Source: a virus
Lineage: Duplodnaviria > Caudoviricetes
Reading direction: 5' to 3' (one strand)
DNA: 24,268 bases
IMG/VR virus record: IMGVR_UViG_3300034045_000073
Coordinates: 1-24,268 of that record
The notes below the pieces were generated by a model. The model was given only the letters and a program-made list of their open reading frames with translations. It did no database searches and was not told where the DNA came from. This document shows, one piece after another, positions 2 to 24,268 of the stretch (position 1 is the stretch's first letter; every line of letters begins with the position of its first letter). The translations under genes were made by a program, and so were the position numbers.

Positions 2-3000
2 GCAAGTGATGGTGTCATTGAGTGGGCAGCTAATAATGAAATACGCTCTACTACTGCATCCACTACAATCACGCCCCCTTTAGATAGTAGCCTAACTGAC
101 GCTGATAGTTATATTATTCGTGTAGTTTGTACTAAAACTGCGTATGGTGGAGATAATGTTACTATCTTCTCCCATTCCTTAGCTAAATTTAATTCCAGAA
201 TAAACTGTACCCTAGGAAACTACAATAATACGTTGTCTTTTGGTCTAATAAATCAAGGTTCGTGGGAAGATATAGCAATACCTCTTAATTTGTATGAAAC
301 CTACGAAGCTACTATGGTGTATGACTCTGTTACAAAGGTAGCTAAACTCTATAATCATGGAATCTACTTATCTGAGAAAACGTTGACCAATGGGTTTTAT
401 GTAAATTCTGGGCAGACTGGTATGAATTTTAGCATACCAGCAGAAAGCACTAAATCATTCACTAACTTAATGGTACTAACAAAAACTGGCTCATTCACTC
501 AAGCCGAAATAGATACAATCGTCAAAGACCCATACTCGCTATTTAAAACTAAACAGAAGAAACAAGCTGAGTATGGTTTGGTGGGCAACGGGGGGGCTAA
601 CATCACTCACCCCGTTGTAACCTTACCAGTTAATTCTGATTTCACTATTGAAGTTAAAATTAAAAGAAATTCTGTAAGTACAAGTCACACAGGAGTGTTA
701 GGTGGAGGGAGTAGCAGTAACTATATTTTTCTACAGGATGGTGCAAATTTAAGAGTCAAGCTTGGGGGGGCAGACAGTACTTTAGTTGATGCGATTATTG
801 ACACTGATTGGCATATAATACTAGTAACAAAAGCAGGTACAAATTTAGTTACCAAGCTTGATGGTGTTGAAGTTTTAAATGAAATAGATGCAAACGCCTA
901 TGATGTAACGTTATGGAGTATTTTGTCAAATGATAATTTGTACAAAGCTAATATTTCCATCGCGTACTATAAAATAATAGCAGACACTCAAACCAACTCT
1001 CGCTTTTGGGAATTTAATCAAACTTTTGGTGATACTGTTATTGACCACTACAACGGTGCAATAGCAACGCTAGTTGGCTTTAGTGCAGACTCAGGTTATG
1101 TTCGCGGTGCAGATGGATTGATTGAGGGGTATCGGTTAGCAGGGAGGTTATCTGGAATAACAATTCTTACACCAACACAAGCGGGTGATGTATTAGAGAT
1201 TGACTTTGGCTCAGAGATTGATTATTCACAATCGTTAGGTGGATATCCGAGCACTGCTAGCACAGTGTTAGATGCTAGATGGGGCGCTACTGGCTATATG
1301 CTAGTTACAAGAGATGGTGATGTTAGTGCGTATGCGGGATTCACCGATTTAAAAATAGATGGAGAATTAACTCCCTACACAGGAAATTACACGACAAATG
1401 GATTAGGAAATCTCACAGGAAAGACTTTAAGTATAACTCCACCAGCAGGCGCTACGCTAACTGTAGGTAATAGATACAGTCTATCTGAAGCTGTACTATT
1501 TATGATTAAAGGTATGCGATTATTACGCGGAGGTGAAGTAGTTAGCGATTGGGATTGTACAACAGGCGATGAAACTAAATTCCCCGACACTATCGGCAAT
1601 AACCATGCGGTAATTAATAATGCAAGTACAGATAAGTGGCAAGAGATTGTGCCTGTACAAGTGTTTACTGTTGGTGCAGGTAAAGATTACCCATTAGTGT
1701 CAACAGCAATGCGAGCACTAGACAACCCAACCTCTGCGCAAACAAGAAACTTAATTGTGTCTGGAGTATTAGTTGAAAATACCGAGCAATATCCTAATAA
1801 TACGAATGCTGTAGAGCTAAATTGGAACATTACAAGTAATGAAACAATAATTGCAAATTATCCAACTATCGAGGGGCTAAAGTTGTCAATGTTTGGCTCA
1901 AATACTGATATCAATGTGAGTCGAGTTAAACTTGTTCAAAGTAATATAGTGGTAACAAGCGGACAAGGTACAGGGTTTAATTTAACGTATGATCATTGTG
2001 ATATTGACGGACAGTTTACAACGAATCATCTTCTCGCGTCAACTTCTCGTTGGGAAAATGGTTTACCAAAAATAAGAAATAGCACTGTTCGTAATTATAA
2101 AGTCTCTGTAAACAACGGCGCGGCACAATTAGACGATTGCATTATCATTGATTGTGCGGGTACTTATTCCAGTTTTGGCAACATAAATGATGGAGCAATA
2201 GCAACCAATTGTTTGTCACTATTAACCACTAACCAATATAATTATGGTGTTACTACCCCACCTTGTTTTAAGGGTACAATAGGCTCTAACAATATATCGT
2301 CTGACACATCAGCAACAACGCTTGGCATAGGCACACAAGACACAGCACTCAATACTTACTTCACAGACCCAGCCAACGGTGATTACACCATTAACTCCGA
2401 TGGTCAAACAGCACTAGCAGGGCAAGGATGGAATGGTACAGATATTGTAAGCTGGGCGTATGCTGTAGCAAGTGGTGGCTTACTCTCAATAACATCAGAC
2501 CTTGAATTACAAAACCAAATATTAGGTTCTGTTTTTAATAGTATTGAACTACAAAATCAAATACTTGCACCGCTTACCAAAGACATTGAATTACAAACAC
2601 GAATTTTTAATGCTGTGTTTAGTGATGTTGAGTTGCAAACGTATGTCCTAGGTGTTGCCCAGCAGACTTTAGACTTACGGACTCAGGTACTTTCAAGTTT
2701 AACTAATGATGTGAGTTTACAAACTCAAATTCTAGGTTCTCTTAGTAACGACTTAGATTTGCGAACAAGCATCTTAGGTAGTGTTTCGCAAGATTTAATC
2801 TTGCAAACTAAGGTGTTATCCGCGATATTAACCGTATATCGAGATTTAGAACTTAGAAATCAAATACTAGGTTCAGTATCTCAGTTTGCTGAATTACGGA
2901 CGCAAATTCTTGGTGTTATAGCAGGAGATTTAGAGTTAAGAACTCAACTACTCGATTCGTTAACTCAAGACGCTGAACTAAGGACTCAGATACTTAGCTT

Positions 3001-3331
3001 TGTATCTACCGATTTGATGTTTAGCACTCAAATCTTTAGTTTTGTAAATCAGACGGTTGAGCTAGAAACGTCTATCTTTGGCACAACTGAGCAGAGTCTA
3101 GAGTTACAGACTCAGATACTTGATGTGGTTAGTGCTGATGTAGAGTTGAGAACTCAAATATTTGATACAACATTTAGTGATTTAACTATTTCAGTGTTTG
3201 TTGATGGTGTACCAGCACCAGCATTCAAGAAAATGCCTTTTGCCTTTGAAGTAAACTCAACAAGTTACTCAGGGGAGTTACAAACAGGGTCTTTTGGCTT
3301 TATACTAGGCGATAAATCTAACGGGTATTAA
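2..3331 (+). CDS. Large virion structural / fibre-like protein, 5'-truncated: LamG/concanavalin-like domains, probable beta-helix segment, C-terminal 14-aa repeats
   Basis: The frame of the 233..3331 ORF stays open back to base 2, so the true start lies outside the window. LamG-like text (SDFTIEVKIKR...DTDWHIILVTKAGTNLVTKLDG), G/T/S/N-rich composition, and position upstream of the lysis genes. Confidence 0.7.
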   Translation, partial: ASDGVIEWAANNEIRSTTASTTITPPLDSSLTDADSYIIRVVCTKTAYGGDNVTIFSHSLAKFNSRINCTLGNYNNTLSFGLINQGSWEDIAIPLNLYETYEATMVYDSVTKVAKLYNHGIYLSEKTLTNGFYVNSGQTGMNFSIPAESTKSFTNLMVLTKTGSFTQAEIDTIVKDPYSLFKTKQKKQAEYGLVGNGGANITHPVVTLPVNSDFTIEVKIKRNSVSTSHTGVLGGGSSSNYIFLQDGANLRVKLGGADSTLVDAIIDTDWHIILVTKAGTNLVTKLDGVEVLNEIDANAYDVTLWSILSNDNLYKANISIAYYKIIADTQTNSRFWEFNQTFGDTVIDHYNGAIATLVGFSADSGYVRGADGLIEGYRLAGRLSGITILTPTQAGDVLEIDFGSEIDYSQSLGGYPSTASTVLDARWGATGYMLVTRDGDVSAYAGFTDLKIDGELTPYTGNYTTNGLGNLTGKTLSITPPAGATLTVGNRYSLSEAVLFMIKGMRLLRGGEVVSDWDCTTGDETKFPDTIGNNHAVINNASTDKWQEIVPVQVFTVGAGKDYPLVSTAMRALDNPTSAQTRNLIVSGVLVENTEQYPNNTNAVELNWNITSNETIIANYPTIEGLKLSMFGSNTDINVSRVKLVQSNIVVTSGQGTGFNLTYDHCDIDGQFTTNHLLASTSRWENGLPKIRNSTVRNYKVSVNNGAAQLDDCIIIDCAGTYSSFGNINDGAIATNCLSLLTTNQYNYGVTTPPCFKGTIGSNNISSDTSATTLGIGTQDTALNTYFTDPANGDYTINSDGQTALAGQGWNGTDIVSWAYAVASGGLLSITSDLELQNQILGSVFNSIELQNQILAPLTKDIELQTRIFNAVFSDVELQTYVLGVAQQTLDLRTQVLSSLTNDVSLQTQILGSLSNDLDLRTSILGSVSQDLILQTKVLSAILTVYRDLELRNQILGSVSQFAELRTQILGVIAGDLELRTQLLDSLTQDAELRTQILSFVSTDLMFSTQIFSFVNQTVELETSIFGTTEQSLELQTQILDVVSADVELRTQIFDTTFSDLTISVFVDGVPAPAFKKMPFAFEVNSTSYSGELQTGSFGFILGDKSNGY
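2489..3169 (+). repeat. 16 tandem 14-aa protein repeats (consensus about VxxDLELxTQILGS), arranged 8+8 around a 3-aa insert
   Basis: Read directly from the translation: ITSDLELQNQILGS, VFNSIELQNQILAP ... VSADVELRTQIFDT, with ILT inserted after unit 8. Confidence 0.9.
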
Positions 3332-4451: not shown

Positions 4452-5012
4452 ATGGCTGACCACAAAACAGACCGAGAAATACTTGAAAGTATTGAAAAAA
4501 TACTTAGCCAAGCTTTAGAGTCAAAACCTCATTATCGGTGTCATGCTGAAAAGCCACAAGCTATAAATATTGCTGAGGTGCTTAGTAATCTAAACGCCTA
4601 TCACGCTCAGCATGGTCAGCCGCTTGAGTCCCACCTACATCAGTCTCATCATGGGCTTAATACCCCTATAGGGTTGAATACTCTCGACGTTAACCGAGAC
4701 TCAAAATTATCCGTTACCATAAAAGACGTGATTGTTCTTGTTGGTGTTAGTATCGCTGCCACCTTGTTCTATGCAAGCTTCAACTCAAGACTCTCTAATT
4801 TAGAAGAAGCCAATGCTCACGCAGAGGCTAAGGTTTCTCAGGTAGTTGAAAATCAAATTACCCAGTTGCGGGTAAACAACGACAACAAAATTTACAAACT
4901 CCGTGATGATATAGAAAAAAAATTAACTCAAGTCAATGATAAGGCTGGTACTACATGGCAAATGCTGAGAACAACTCAAAAAGATGTAGAACTTTTAAAA
5001 AAATCTCGTTAA
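4452..5012 (+). CDS. Single-pass membrane protein with His-rich N-terminal part and C-terminal coiled coil
   Basis: TM segment VIVLVGVSIAATLFYASF; heptad-like tail (RLSNLEEANAHAEAK...KDVELLKK); HAQHGQPLESHLHQSHHG; AGGA SD plus start motif. Confidence 0.7.
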   Translation: MADHKTDREILESIEKILSQALESKPHYRCHAEKPQAINIAEVLSNLNAYHAQHGQPLESHLHQSHHGLNTPIGLNTLDVNRDSKLSVTIKDVIVLVGVSIAATLFYASFNSRLSNLEEANAHAEAKVSQVVENQITQLRVNNDNKIYKLRDDIEKKLTQVNDKAGTTWQMLRTTQKDVELLKKSR

Positions 5013-5419
5013 TTGTTCTCTTTTTTGTTCTCAGCTTATGGTTGTCAGTTTGTCTAGCTGACCCTGTTGTGAACAAGAAAAACCCGACTAAATTTGTCAC
5101 ACGCGCAGAGCTCGAAGACTTGTTTATGGGGAGAACACCTTATTGGGATAATGGTGAAAAAGTTATTCTTGTGTTATTGCCATTAAGGTCAATATCGACA
5201 CAGGAACTCTTAAATGAATTGAATATACCTATGTATATTTATAAACGTAAATTGGCGCGGCTATCAAAAGATTCTTTTGGAGAACTACCAATTTACGTTG
5301 ATGATACCTATGATATGTTGTTGGTAGTTGGCTCTGAGCCTAGAGCCTTGAGCTTCGTCAGAAGCAATACCATTATCTTAGAAACTGATGATATTAAACT
5401 TTTACAGGTGACCCCATGA
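4955..5419 (+). CDS. Exported single-lobe periplasmic-binding-protein-like protein (family often annotated phosphate ABC transporter substrate-binding protein)
   Basis: Signal peptide (KKISLIVLFFVLSLWLSVCLA|D), then VVNKKNP...RAELEDLFMGRTPYWDNG and MLLVVGSEPRALSFV, matching the family pattern V(N/H)PxN...LxxIFxGxxxxWxdG...VxxxPgAigYv. Confidence 0.7.
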   Translation: MANAENNSKRCRTFKKISLIVLFFVLSLWLSVCLADPVVNKKNPTKFVTRAELEDLFMGRTPYWDNGEKVILVLLPLRSISTQELLNELNIPMYIYKRKLARLSKDSFGELPIYVDDTYDMLLVVGSEPRALSFVRSNTIILETDDIKLLQVTP

Positions 5420-6648
5420 AAAGACTACCAAGTAGGATAATTTTTATTTGGATGTGTCTATTAATTGCAGCAAGTTTCAGTGTTTTTTCTAGTAGATATA
5501 CACAAGTAACTGATAACACTAGTGCTCGTATAACCATTTTTGGTGGGGTGACACACATTGACTCCGAGCATGAAAGCTTATTTAAATCTCCAATGTCTGA
5601 ATTGGGTGTGAATCTATTAAAAAACTATCCCTCTGGGCTCAGTTTCAAGGCTCAGACAAGTTTACGCCCAGCCCTACAAAATAAGGTAGGTCTTGATTGG
5701 TTTTATCTAAATTATGAGTTCAGCAAAAACTTTAGTTTTGATGTTGGGTTGCTTGATGCCAATATGGGGTTGCAAGGCTCTGGGATTCAAAATCCTTACG
5801 CTAGATATTCAGTAATTCCAATTCAAAGCACCATGTTTACGACGACACTCGGAGTAGCTTCATTAATGACTGGTGTACGAGCTAGTTACAAGCGGTATAT
5901 TTCGGCACTCGCTACTAACTTATCACTATCAGCTACTTACGGTGAGCCACGTTTTTCTCCCTCTGAATCTGAAAGTATTTTATCAGCATTACTAAAAGAG
6001 ACTTGGATTGAGGGTTATCCAACCTATGACAGTAAGTGGCAAGTTGAGCTTAAAGCAAAAACTAGGCGTTGGGATTTATCCTTAACAATTGATGATATTG
6101 GCTATACCTTTGATTCATATAATTTAGAGCAGAAACACTTTAGACAAATGGTTGCTAGTGTGCGCAGGGCGAGTATACGAACTGAGTTTCTAGCTGAGCT
6201 TTATCTTGGCAACGCCAACCCACTGCGTAGTTCGGATTTTAACAAAGCACCTATACCTGAGGATGCCCCTGAGCAGCCACCTTTTGCTAAAGGTGGTATT
6301 AGTGGTTTCAACGTTTATGTTAGTCAGTTACTTATGGATAGAGTAACTATGTATGGGGGGATTTCCTTATTCTATTTCGATACGGAATCACCACATGGTG
6401 ACTACTGGGAATCGGTTCGTCCAGAGGGTGAAATATACCAATATCCTAAGGAATTCAGGTATAATGAAGACTTGATGCTTGGTTTTCGTTACGACTTTAC
6501 AGATGACCAAGCACTTACATTTGAGATACACAGAAGTAAAGGTGTTCTAGCTAATCGCTACAATTATTTTTCTGACCCACAAGCAAAATCTAATATCGAT
6601 GATACTACGTGGTATGTGTATGCACTCAACTGGTCATTTATGTTTTGA
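5416..6648 (+). CDS. Outer-membrane beta-barrel (porin-like) protein
   Basis: Signal peptide, amphipathic strands (ELGVN, LDWFYLNYEF, MLGFRYDF, LTFEIH) and a C-terminal beta-signal YALNWSFMF; ATGA overlap with the upstream gene. Confidence 0.75.
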   Translation: MKRLPSRIIFIWMCLLIAASFSVFSSRYTQVTDNTSARITIFGGVTHIDSEHESLFKSPMSELGVNLLKNYPSGLSFKAQTSLRPALQNKVGLDWFYLNYEFSKNFSFDVGLLDANMGLQGSGIQNPYARYSVIPIQSTMFTTTLGVASLMTGVRASYKRYISALATNLSLSATYGEPRFSPSESESILSALLKETWIEGYPTYDSKWQVELKAKTRRWDLSLTIDDIGYTFDSYNLEQKHFRQMVASVRRASIRTEFLAELYLGNANPLRSSDFNKAPIPEDAPEQPPFAKGGISGFNVYVSQLLMDRVTMYGGISLFYFDTESPHGDYWESVRPEGEIYQYPKEFRYNEDLMLGFRYDFTDDQALTFEIHRSKGVLANRYNYFSDPQAKSNIDDTTWYVYALNWSFMF

Positions 6649-7811: not shown

Positions 7812-7854
7812 ACTGGTCTGATGTGTTATTTTGATTTTTCGGTTGCATACTAAC

Positions 7855-8114
7855 TGTATTCAAATTGTATTCTTTTTGTATGCTTTTTTACTGAATTGTC
7901 CCCAAATTGTATTCTTTTTTAGGCACTATTCAGGCACTAACTAGGACAGTTATCCCCATAACTGATTGATTTATGAAAGCTATAAAGCCCCTCAGAGATG
8001 ACTCTGGATTAAGAGTCTTGTTATATCAAGGCAAGCAGGTTTTCTTCTAAGTTAGTGTTTTTTCTGAGTTTTTAAAGCTCTCGAAAATTCAATGTATTCT
8101 TTTTGTATTCTTTT
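7855..8114. mobile_element. Phage attachment site attP
   Basis: Non-coding DNA at the 3' end of int. 11-bp direct repeats TGTATTC(TTTT/AAAT) at 7855, 7866, 7877, (7897), 7908 and at 8093, 8104. AGGCACTA repeats at 7921 and 7932. IHF consensus at 7959-7971. GACTCT-6-AGAGTC inverted repeat at 8000-8017. Confidence 0.75.
7959..7971 (-). promoter_or_regulatory. IHF binding site
   Basis: Minus strand AATCAATCAGTTA is a perfect match to WATCAANNNNTTR and lies inside attP. Confidence 0.7.
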
Positions 8115-8116
8115 GA

Positions 8117-9277
8117 CTACAAAAATGAATCCTCGTCCTCGTTTTTGCCGTGGGTAATTTCATATTCCTCGATGTAATATCCATAATGTTCATAAAGCAT
8201 TTTTGGCGAAGTATGCCCCATTAATTTTGTTAGCTTCCAAAGATTAATACCTTGAGAAATTAATCGTGACGCGAACGTGTGTCTTGTTTGGTATGGGTAG
8301 CGATATTCAACATTGGCTCGTTTAAGGCAATTCTTCCAAAAAGATTCTCTAAAGGTTGCAAAGATGATTGGTCGTTTATCACGATTTATAAAAACATATT
8401 TATCTGGTAGTGAACCAGAAATCATTACTTGGTTTTCTAATGCTAAACGACAAGCATCTGAAATAGGGATTCGTCTAGCACCACTGGCTGTTTTGGTTTT
8501 CTTGTCTTCACCTAAAACCCTAGCCCCTCGAATATGAATTGTGCTTTTTGTTATATCCGACCAGAGAAGCCCACAAGCTTCTGAACTTCTAACACCCGTT
8601 TCAAATAGAAAACTAATCAGGTTGTAGTATTTCATATTAGTTGAAGCGGAATTTAAGATAGCTTCTTGTTCTTGTTTACTAAATGGTTTTACGTCTTCGT
8701 TTATTAAATTTCTATCAACTTTATCAGCCTTTCTTAGGTAGTTTCCTAAACTAACAACTCGTGCTGGATTCTGAACTATAATTCCATCTAAGACGGCTTC
8801 ATCTAGGGCTAAAGAAAGCACTGAAAATCTACCACGCAATGTAGCAGTTGTTAGGTGACTGTTTGTTGATATGTAAGTTTGAATATGGCTTGTTGTTAAC
8901 TGTTTTACAGGGAGTGTTTTCCAGTGTTTGAACGAGTTAATTTTACTTTGGTGGGGGAGCAATGTTGATTTAGCTAAACCTCGCTTTCTAGCATTTTCAT
9001 AGAATTTATCTAGGTAATAGCCAACGGTGGGTGATTTAGGCGTGTTGCCAAAAATAAGTGTCTTTTTACTATCTGGGAAATACTCCGCATAGCTAAAGAT
9101 ATTTTCGTATATCTTACGTTGTATCTCAGCTAAGCGGTTGGCTGTATATTTAATCTGAGCTTTGGTCGGGTTAATGATTCTCGTGGATTCGTAGCATTTT
9201 ACACCACGATAACTAAAACGAATCCACAAGGTTTCACCTCTTAAATATAATCCTCTTGGGAGTTTTCCAGCGCCCAT
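8117..9277 (-). CDS. int: Tyrosine integrase with N-terminal arm-binding domain (DUF3596-like)
   Basis: N-terminal LPRGLYLRGETLWIRFSYRGVKCYES; catalytic ETGVRSSE, KTKT, YQTRHTFAS, LMGH, LYEHY. Confidence 0.95.
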   Translation of the reverse strand: MGAGKLPRGLYLRGETLWIRFSYRGVKCYESTRIINPTKAQIKYTANRLAEIQRKIYENIFSYAEYFPDSKKTLIFGNTPKSPTVGYYLDKFYENARKRGLAKSTLLPHQSKINSFKHWKTLPVKQLTTSHIQTYISTNSHLTTATLRGRFSVLSLALDEAVLDGIIVQNPARVVSLGNYLRKADKVDRNLINEDVKPFSKQEQEAILNSASTNMKYYNLISFLFETGVRSSEACGLLWSDITKSTIHIRGARVLGEDKKTKTASGARRIPISDACRLALENQVMISGSLPDKYVFINRDKRPIIFATFRESFWKNCLKRANVEYRYPYQTRHTFASRLISQGINLWKLTKLMGHTSPKMLYEHYGYYIEEYEITHGKNEDEDSFL

Positions 9278-9525
9278 TTACTTACAGCCTCTAAATTGAT
9301 CCACAAACGTTTACCACCATTAGGTACACTTGCATGAACACCATGTACCCAAACTCCTTTAGCTAAACGTTTTTTTACTGCCCCCTCTGTTTCTAAAAAC
9401 GTCTGACAGTAAACTGGCAATGGTAACGCTTTAATTGACCCAGCTAAGGCTAGCATTGGTGATGTTAATAATAAGTTGGCGGCTGCATTATCAACCGCAG
9501 TTAACTCTTGGTTTTCATTTGTCAT
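9241..9525 (-). CDS. xis: Excisionase
   Basis: Small ORF overlapping the int start; ETEGAVKKRLAKGVWVHGVH...RLWINLEAVSKW pattern of phage excisionases. Confidence 0.75.
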   Translation of the reverse strand: MTNENQELTAVDNAAANLLLTSPMLALAGSIKALPLPVYCQTFLETEGAVKKRLAKGVWVHGVHASVPNGGKRLWINLEAVSKWALENSQEDYI

Positions 9526-22920: not shown

Positions 22921-23130
22921 CTATTTCTTTTTATTTATAGTGTTAGGCGGTTTGTTGAATTCGTGTATGTGATCACCTATCCAGTTGTCCTTTTCTCGTT
23001 CGCTGTTGAATCTGATCACTGGCATTCTATCAAACATGGGTTTTTTGGTTATATCGAAATCATATTGGTTTTCAATTAACCACTCTACACACTCGCCCAT
23101 ATCCATTTTTAATAAATCTTCTATTTTCAT
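22921..23130 (-). CDS. Hypothetical protein, 69 aa
   Basis: AGGA SD; lies between the relic site at 22942 and attC-like site A. Confidence 0.65.
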   Translation of the reverse strand: MKIEDLLKMDMGECVEWLIENQYDFDITKKPMFDRMPVIRFNSEREKDNWIGDHIHEFNKPPNTINKKK

Positions 23131-23157: not shown

Positions 23158-23246
23158 ATATAACAACATAAATAAATGGGACGCAAAACAGTTTGTCGCC
23201 CCTCGTTAACTTTTGTACTGTGCGCCCTTTTTTATAAGGGTTAGAA
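23158..23246 (+). mobile_element. attC-like recombination site A (89 bp)
   Basis: R'' ATATAAC, spacer AACAT, L'' AAATAAAT, inner stem GGGaCGCA/TGCGCCC, T-rich L', R' GTTAGAA. Confidence 0.7.
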
Positions 23247-23435
23247 AGAATTAACTCCAAACCCTGCCGCTACTGCCATAAACATTCTGGCTTGACGTAA
23301 ATCCGCCTTACTACTTCTGTATTTGTCAGGATTTTCTATGCGGTCAATTCTTTCAGCTTCATTTGCTGCCTTACGTTTTTTTATTGTCTCGTTGTGAATA
23401 CGTGCAGCTTCTTTCTTTTTCGCACTATTTCCCAT
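23241..23435 (-). CDS. Basic hypothetical protein, 64 aa (cassette gene)
   Basis: AGGAG SD; its TAA stop is the complement of TTA in the R' box of site A. Confidence 0.7.
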   Translation of the reverse strand: MGNSAKKKEAARIHNETIKKRKAANEAERIDRIENPDKYRSSKADLRQARMFMAVAAGFGVNSF

Positions 23436-23460
23436 AACTATGCACTCCTGTTAATTAAAT

Positions 23461-23558
23461 TTCTAACAACTCGTTCAAGTACTCTCGCTCTGCTCGTCGG
23501 AAAATAACAGTTCGCTAGCTCACAAAACGTTATTTCCGCTTAACAGTAAAGGTTAGGC
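23461..23558 (+). mobile_element. attC-like recombination site B (98 bp)
   Basis: TTCTAAC-AACTC-GTTCAAGT ... CGGAAAATAAC/GTTATTTCCG stem ... GCTTAAC-AGTAAAG-GTTAGGC; close to canonical R''-L''-L'-R' architecture. Confidence 0.85.
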
Positions 23559-23560
23559 GG

Positions 23561-23764
23561 TTAATCCAGTTTCAACGTTTTGTGCAAGCTGTCAAAATCT
23601 GCCGCCCTGACATCTTTTACTATTTTATTTATTTGGCTATCTGGCAAACCAAGCTTATTTAGCGTTTGTTCAAAAGCTATTTGCAGTCTTGTTCGGTCAT
23701 TAGCAACCTTGCAAAGTTCTTCGCCAAACTTTTGCAGCATCCTAGCTTTATCACCAGTAGCCAT
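23561..23764 (-). CDS. Hypothetical helical protein, 67 aa (cassette gene downstream of acb2)
   Basis: Starts 3 nt after the acb2 stop and ends 2 nt from the R' box of site B. Confidence 0.65.
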   Translation of the reverse strand: MATGDKARMLQKFGEELCKVANDRTRLQIAFEQTLNKLGLPDSQINKIVKDVRAADFDSLHKTLKLD

Positions 23765-23767
23765 AAC

Positions 23768-23992
23768 TTAAAAACTCTCTGGTTGTGCTATAGCACGAAC
23801 AGCAGCCATAAAGCCTTTTTGTAAATCAGTTTTAGCTACTGAAACCCAGCGCTGATCTAGCTGTTTATTGCTCTGTAATTCTTCGATTAAAAATCCTACT
23901 TCTTCTGCTTTCGCTTTAACAGCGTTCATTGCGTTAATTTCGGCTTGACTTAAATCGCGATAGCCTTTAATTTTCTTGTGTTGATTATCCAT
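23768..23992 (-). CDS. acb2: Acb2-family anti-CBASS cyclic-oligonucleotide sponge, 74 aa
   Basis: MDNQHKKIKGYRDLSQ...K26...RWVSVAKTDLQKGFMAAVRAIAQPESF matches my recollection of Pseudomonas phage Acb2. Start set at ATG 23992 (AGAGG SD) because the longer ORF-track start runs through site C. Confidence 0.9.
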   Translation of the reverse strand: MDNQHKKIKGYRDLSQAEINAMNAVKAKAEEVGFLIEELQSNKQLDQRWVSVAKTDLQKGFMAAVRAIAQPESF

Positions 23993-24031
23993 TGTGTTTC
24001 CTCTTTCTTTGATTAAGTTGCCAAGCAAACC

Positions 24032-24125
24032 GCCTAACAACGCGTTTAAATTCACTCCCTTTGGTCGTCGGATTCGTTACAGTTGGTTCCCAACTTTCAC
24101 TCACCGCTTAACGCAAAGGTTATAT
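24032..24125 (+). mobile_element. attC-like recombination site C (94 bp)
   Basis: GCCTAAC-AACGC-GTTTAAAT ... GCTTAAC-GCAAAG-GTTATAT; shares the internal TCGTCGGA and CCGCTTAAC elements with site B. Confidence 0.8.
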
Positions 24126-24266
24126 TGCCTTTGTTGCTTTTTGTGCAATCTTCCATGCAGCGGTAAGCTTAGCCAATTCCCCACCTGTAATTTCTTGGTG
24201 GCTCTTGATGTCATTCAACGCTTTAGTTAGCTTTTCAATATGATTAGCCATACCTAAACATAAATA
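24120..24266 (-). CDS. 3' end of a hypothetical protein, probably truncated by the window edge
   Basis: Frame is open from the edge: YLCLGMANHIEKLTKALNDIKSHQEITGGELAKLTAAWKIAQKATKAI*; the stop lies in the R' box of site C. Not in the ORF track. Confidence 0.55.
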   Translation of the reverse strand, partial: YLCLGMANHIEKLTKALNDIKSHQEITGGELAKLTAAWKIAQKATKAI

Positions 24267-24268
24267 CT

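Follow-up and report, generated by a model that had tools for sequence, protein, structure and literature searches.

Gene cassettes bounded by attC sites in inverted orientation in a tailed-phage genome fragment

What kind of genetic array is formed when attC sites lie in a row in a phage genome and the genes between them are all encoded on the opposite strand? This question is raised by one end of the window, i.e., the whole 24.3-kb stretch of DNA analyzed here, which is a tailed-phage fragment (30% complete). Its late genes are on the plus strand, and the genes for an integrase, an excisionase, an SbcCD-like protein, RecU, a helicase-primase, and PolA are on the minus strand. The PolA protein shares 52% identity with its counterpart in Pseudoalteromonas phage KB12-38, a likeness suggesting that the host is a marine gammaproteobacterium. 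A 33-kb contig (L001) with proteins identical to those of the window belongs to the same phage and runs beyond the window end. When viral contigs were searched with the polymerase and with two genes described below (orf64 and orf69), the only relatives recovered belonged to the same phage.

A structure-based attC finder (score of at least 9.25) returned exactly three sites in the window, all on the plus strand: site 1 (positions 23158 to 23246, 89 bp), site 2 (23461 to 23558, 98 bp), and site 3 (24032 to 24125, 94 bp). Each has the attC anatomy R''(AAC)-spacer-L''...L'-spacer-R'(GTT) within 57 to 141 bp. Contig L001 adds two sites of the same polarity, giving a row of five, and the R and L boxes and the bulge positions are intact at all of them. 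With a scoring devised after the sites had been seen, Markov-resampled windows gave a mean of 0.067 matches (maximum of 1), and three same-strand matches within 1.1 kb were found in 0 of 60 such windows. The three sites of the window, and the five of L001, form a CALIN, i.e., at least two co-oriented attC sites without a neighboring intI. No match to the sites was found in Rfam, and site 3 had no real match among cultured phages; it is 89 to 97% alike to sites in four contigs (L005, L026, L099, and L139). In the last of these (positions 1 to 1945, from a Paraglaciecola MAG), the site is 89% like site 3 and lies inverted between genes that by eye resemble a methyltransferase and RtcB, in a phage-like region.

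The initial annotation had assigned the attC top strand to the plus strand on the basis of an asymmetry of the L boxes (GTTCAAG/GCTTAAC). This exact pair is present at site 2 and absent from sites 1 and 3, and the assignment itself holds on other grounds. Constrained folds placed the extrahelical bases on the AAC arm, read on the plus strand, in 3 of 3 sites, and since such bases are the mark of the attC top strand (Nivina 2016, PMC5027507), the plus strand is the top strand of the array. Site 1 has bulges at 16/20/24, and sites 2 and 3 combine a bulge at 16 with an 18-nt side loop and one more bulge, as read from the sequence and the constrained fold. On the bottom strand, the base of bulge 16 is an A, not a G, at sites 1 and 3. 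Bottom-strand constrained folds had energies of -8.6, -6.7, and -7.0 kcal/mol and pfold values of 3e-2, 1e-2, and 7e-4 for sites 1, 2, and 3, respectively. The sites thus fold weakly compared with 38 bacterial-type sites (median pfold of 0.21), lying under most of these and over the low pfold values given in the literature for Vibrio, and their top-strand pfold was equal to or above the bottom-strand one. Unconstrained folding did not return the canonical hairpin, the free folds being noncanonical (z of -0.4 to -1.7). Low-pfold attC sites show reduced recombination, yet they are still recombined and mobilized, and the sites of the window may be active as well.

All the cassette genes lie on the minus strand, which is the attC bottom strand. 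The earlier claim that every ORF lies there stood for these genes and not for the shadow ORFs of 63 to 78 aa that are present on the plus strand, two of which were tested and had no PHROG match. The gene orf64 (23241 to 23435) forms a single-gene inverted cassette, with its stop codon (23241) inside R' of site 1 (23240 to 23246). The middle cassette holds two genes, acb2 (23768 to 23992) and, downstream of it, orf67 (23561 to 23764); its own attC is site 3, and its stop at 23561 is 3 nt past R' of site 2 (23552 to 23558). The next inverted cassette carries orf93 (93 aa), whose 3' part alone falls inside the window (24120 to 24268); it is complete in L001 (2595 to 2876), and its stop (24120) is inside R' of site 3 (24119 to 24125). 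The stops are therefore in or beside R', as had been described. Start codons with purine-rich leaders are 25, 27, and 39 nt from R'', the last being that of acb2. None of these is a canonical cassette, in which the ORF is on the top strand and ends at R'', since every ORF is on the bottom strand.

Beside site 1, with its start 27 nt from R'', is orf69 (22921 to 23130, minus strand). Its homologs have mainly the N-terminal half in common, and it is therefore probably a chimera. A lone R'-like core on the plus strand (22942 to 22950), of 9 nt identical to the R' flank of site 2, falls within the 3' end of orf69 and is possibly the left boundary of the array. The core is read by orf69 as Pro-Pro-Asn, which gives the gene the look of a chimeric boundary cassette. 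Homologs exist for orf64, orf67, and orf69, and none of the three could be assigned to a family. Pfam, PHROG, and NCBIfam had no match for orf64, whose 13 homologs, mostly conserved at the C terminus, are all on contigs of at most 2.5 kb. For orf67 there are 12 homologs, and it adjoins acb2 in L002 to L005, L026, and L373. The ESM Atlas had a usable match for neither orf67 nor orf64. A promoter scan stayed at chance with nothing standing out, and 3 terminators were found versus 2.1 expected. Among the sequencing runs listed, no RNA run carried the sequence, and shares were small, so that no habitat is assigned from them.

The cargo of the middle cassette can be assigned to a family. The 74-aa product of acb2 matches PF24729 (E = 2e-21), and the closest structure is PDB 8H2J (E = 1e-18), which is the Acb2 of Pseudomonas phage PaMx33 (PMC12393519). 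The equivalents of the four ligand-binding residues Y11, K26, R67, and T74 (residues as given in PMC10312549) are kept. In contrast to the PaMx33 protein, that of the window is without some 19 central residues and is borne by a cassette. The gene is thus predicted from its sequence to encode an Acb2/Tad1-family nucleotide sponge, a putative CBASS blocker, with ligand binding likewise a prediction. Some Acb2 homologs inhibit Thoeris, not CBASS.

The matching of the cassette ends shows that the array is made of discrete units, as in bacterial arrays. Past AAC/GTT, the pairing of R' with the R'' of the following site extends over 5 and 8 bases, versus 1 to 2 with its own R''. In phage loci, R' pairs on average over 4.8 bases with the next R'' (n = 14) and over 2.1 with its own (n = 22); the corresponding means for bacterial arrays are 5.4 (n = 43) and 2.2 (n = 55). 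As a test of polarity, this complementarity was rejected, because the measure is symmetric.

The unit formed by acb2 and orf67 (81 to 95% identical) recurs in five contexts (L001, L002 to L004, L005, L026, and L373). The flanks tested were mostly unrelated, and three pairs of contexts that were compared had little else in common. The start-side attC is 96 to 99% shared among L001, L005, and L026, keeps both arms in L002, and differs in L373, where the automatic boundaries are imprecise. The stop-side attC is different in 10 of 10 pairs (37 to 60%). Hence, the start-side site travels with the genes in four of the five contexts and the stop-side site in none, which is the prediction of a bottom-strand crossover at R' given the plus-strand polarity. 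Accordingly placed breaks, at 23239 and 23547 to 23553, i.e., at R', were found in contigs from four runs. In short, acb2 and orf67 have what defines an integron cassette: they form a unit delimited by R' crossovers, its ends are complementary, and it occurs in several contexts. A search of 301 sampled bacterial genomes for the DNA of this cassette gave nothing beyond two short matches at chance level. Among 80 acb2 loci, 9 had an attC site nearby, all antisense, and 71 had none. More distant acb2 genes (56 to 58% identical; L040/L041 and L063) likewise adjoin inverted attC sites, suggesting repeated capture. In L002 (3441 to 3570), the attC site after orf67 has a ribosome site and an ATG in its loop, and the next gene starts inside the site and reads through R''.

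Other breakpoints lie elsewhere. Some contigs break just past R'' (23167 to 23168, three runs, behind the orf69 leader) or at 24021, with different attC bodies there, and the bodies diverge directly after R'' in L373, in the X1 and X6 contigs, and behind the orf69 leader. A bottom-strand IntI alone does not explain body swaps right after R''. Site A of L001 (2160 to 2258) is a near copy of site 1 that includes some 13 nt from the 3' end of orf64 past the crossover. Together with the breaks on the R'' side, this copy makes a second, non-IntI route of exchange likely.

Which enzyme would move the cassettes? The tyrosine integrase of the window (8117 to 9525, minus strand) is of phage type, comes with an excisionase, and was ruled out as an IntI (TIGR02249, 17.8 bits versus a cutoff of 265). 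No IntI above the cutoff was found in the six phage records searched (G000 and G005 to G009), of which two are 99 to 100% complete, and one of these (G007, 99%) has no candidate recombinase for the cassettes. A complete integron (intI, attI, and Pc) is not present, since neither the window nor G005, both of them partial genomes, encodes an IntI. In G006, a phage that bears the acb2 cassette, a 211-aa tyrosine-recombinase-like ORF lies beside a pair that looks HicAB-like by eye (L368, 247 to 1740).

The array works like an integron cassette array, while being neither a complete integron nor a row of canonical cassettes. Since the phage records searched are without IntI, a host enzyme is the likely mover, and we consider it probable that these are attC-bounded cassettes with bottom-strand genes in line with the replication genes, moved by a host IntI at R' and read from phage early promoters. 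A host integron integrase would excise and insert the cassettes at the normal R' crossover, transcription would come from the phage early promoters, and the retention of cassettes co-oriented with early transcription would fix the polarity. Short GWT sites also accept IntI insertion (10.1101/2022.09.11.507474), a route by which an array could begin on the antisense side of a stop codon, and the core at 22942 is perhaps a boundary of this kind. On this reading, phages likely maintain a stock of exchangeable gene cassettes of their own.

Rather unlikely, in our view, is a history in which the sites are eroded former IntI substrates and gene exchange relies mostly on homologous or illegitimate recombination at patches of attC origin, much like that reported for the PeSL motifs of T4-type phages. 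Erosion would fit phages without IntI whose sites fold weakly, and patch recombination would fit attC bodies swapped at R'', the orf64 end copied beside site A, and a chimeric orf69; yet the boxes and bulge positions remain intact at five sites, breakpoints cluster at R', and the polarity bias is left unexplained. Low-pfold cassettes are still mobilized, and a site of phage H101 that recombined (PMC9892861) has a computed pfold of 2.5e-5, which also argues against erosion. It is improbable that the layout serves a phage or host recombinase acting on the other strand or cleaving at R'', for which the cassettes would have a functionally normal orientation: the symmetry of end complementarity, the breaks just past R'', and the recombinase-like ORF of G006 leave room for such an enzyme, but the start-side attC is the one that co-travels, G007 has no candidate, and IntI1 prefers the bottom strand of inverted H101 sites. 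Chance hairpins or RNA-level signals (terminators or processing sites) resembling attC, in keeping with transcription of the bottom strand, weak free folds, and the lack of an Rfam match, are very improbable in view of the resampling, the full attC anatomy, the matching of cassette ends, and terminators that are not in excess.

The retained reading, in which the polarity is a property of phage cassettes, calls for a comparison of viral and bacterial attC sites, and the survey of ORF orientation proposed in the initial annotation indeed revealed an inverted bias on the phage side. Viral and bacterial collections were both scanned with one strand-asymmetric pattern, and viral contigs alone with two more; these patterns cover few attC types, and the sites are not independent. 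One trial pattern was discarded because it missed the sites of the window. In a first pass, the 21 viral sites were inverted (13), both (5), or at edges (3), with 0 canonical, versus 15 inverted, 91 canonical, 40 both, 6 none, and 24 at edges among the 176 bacterial matches listed. A greedy longest-ORF strand call on the first viral set was ambiguous (9 antisense, 8 sense) and was dropped after PHROG matches proved to be antisense only (25 of 84 antisense versus 0 of 78 sense ORFs; the matches come from 15 of 19 loci, including two related to the acb2 cassette). In the second viral set, PHROG matches were found for 14 of 51 antisense ORFs and for 4 of 34 sense ones, all four of the latter in isolate-derived records.

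A stricter classification used long-flanked loci only (80 of the 148 bacterial ones), and viral records were split by IMG identifier convention, which we take to separate isolate from metagenome origin. Metagenomic viral sites were mostly inverted (48 versus 9 canonical and 33 others, n = 90), those of isolate-genome-derived viral records less so (5 versus 13, with 3 others, n = 21), and those of bacterial genomes rarely, among the matches listed (4 versus 66, with 26 others, n = 96). The strict counts give a Fisher P of 6e-21, for sites that are not independent and a bacterial side taken among the matches listed. Once near-duplicates were collapsed, the ratios of inverted to canonical sites were 35:9, 5:13, and, among the bacterial matches listed, 4:30. 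The inverted class is phage biased and neither phage exclusive nor universal. Hence, the phage-specific cassette class first suggested survives as a bias (48:9 versus 4:66 among the bacterial matches listed) and fails as an exclusive trait, since phage TJE1 is canonical, P12002L is mixed, and 4 of 70 classified bacterial sites are inverted. The antisense neighbors of viral attC sites include many DNA methyltransferases, a Lar-like protein, and also core genes such as terminase, so that some sites bound no tidy cassette. The finder used on the window was also applied to intI loci of Colwellia and Paraglaciecola, where the top strand was directed away from intI, as in ordinary integrons, in 5 of the 6 loci with a site; the exception has a fragmentary intI, and two further intI loci had no site. 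Among the 17 sites of these intI loci and of related marine bacterial loci, none was inverted; 8 were canonical, and the other 9 were left unclassified.

Clusters of attC sites in phages are already known; Qi et al. 2023 (PMC9892861) described 17 phage CALINs and IntI1 activity for five sites. Like the window, these are attC clusters in phage genomes without IntI. When mapped on their records, the sites were inverted in H101 (4 of 4), canonical in TJE1 (3 of 3), and mixed in P12002L (one inverted, two canonical). The four CALIN sites of H101 (L250, 30919 to 32987) are all antisense to the annotated genes gp132 to gp136, a layout inverted like that of the window, and two of these inverted sites recombined with IntI1, the bottom strand being the better one (PMC9892861). 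The text consulted in that article, figures and Dryad file aside, presents the cassettes as co-directional and typical of bacterial arrays and leaves the polarity of genes versus attC unremarked; the cargo it names is methyltransferases, not Acb2 as in the window. Our literature search, with subscription journals mostly outside its scope, retrieved no account of inversion as a systematic feature or of Acb2 carried on a cassette, and the available text of PMC11551772 and PMC8876359 gives no figure for inverted cassettes in bacteria. The array of the window is a variant of these phage CALINs.

Other known systems share part of this organization. The sedentary chromosomal integrons of Colwellia and Paraglaciecola are alike in attC length and anatomy, in having one or two short genes per cassette, and in complementary ends. 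The phage array differs from them by genes on the opposite strand, stops at R' and not R'', the lack of intI, attI, and Pc, weaker hairpins, and phage-type cargo. Immune-conflict genes are also carried by the anti-phage defense cassettes of integrons (10.1101/2024.07.02.601686; 10.1101/2024.07.02.601719), to which the window adds the counter-defense side, in a phage and with reversed polarity. In T4-type phages, PeSL shuffling involves repeated intergenic elements between swappable early genes (PMC2839356, PMC4122927), as in the window. The titles of these articles present PeSLs as promoter-terminator motifs, whereas the sites of the window have attC anatomy and breakpoints at R'.

The polarity has predictable consequences. 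Host cassettes in a phage array would be antisense to phage transcription, and phage cassettes at a host attI would be antisense to Pc; from this placement in both directions, we predict two pools with a common enzyme, each silent in the array of the other. Integrons have recently been shown to be libraries of anti-phage defenses, and a phage pool of counter-defense cassettes built on the same chemistry of recombination would represent the opposing side of this arms race. Polarity would also be a simple marker to tell cassettes of phage origin from host arrays included in prophage calls, and the genes within inverted attC arrays are candidates for new anti-defense proteins. The genesis of cassettes has been described as largely unknown (PMC5371416), and polarity makes it testable. 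A broader and tentative proposal, to which we give somewhat less than even chances, is that of a mirror-image integron widespread in tailed phages: a private pool of accessory and counter-defense genes (Acb2, methyltransferases, and restriction alleviation), shuffled by host IntI, in which the reversed polarity would silence host defense cassettes in the phage and phage cassettes in the host, and with phage early regions maybe the place where genes first gain attC sites.

Outside the array, the window has some further features. It encodes a ProQ/FinO-family protein (PF04352; 13296 to 13715). Two ORFs of 154 and 410 aa adjoining the endolysin gene (4955 to 6648) have no Pfam match and by eye look exported or membrane bound and of bacterial type. 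Repeats of 42 nt are found within a tail-like gene (2497 to 3166), and short direct repeats located directly past the integrase gene (7852 to 8115) are possibly attP arm sites. Lastly, a conserved motif, (A/T)CGACGATG, is present at ten gene starts on both strands (3355, 4446, and 7237 on the plus strand; 9531, 9768, 12829, 13281, 17223, 17926, and 22489 on the minus strand) and is possibly a phage-specific signal for translation or transcription.
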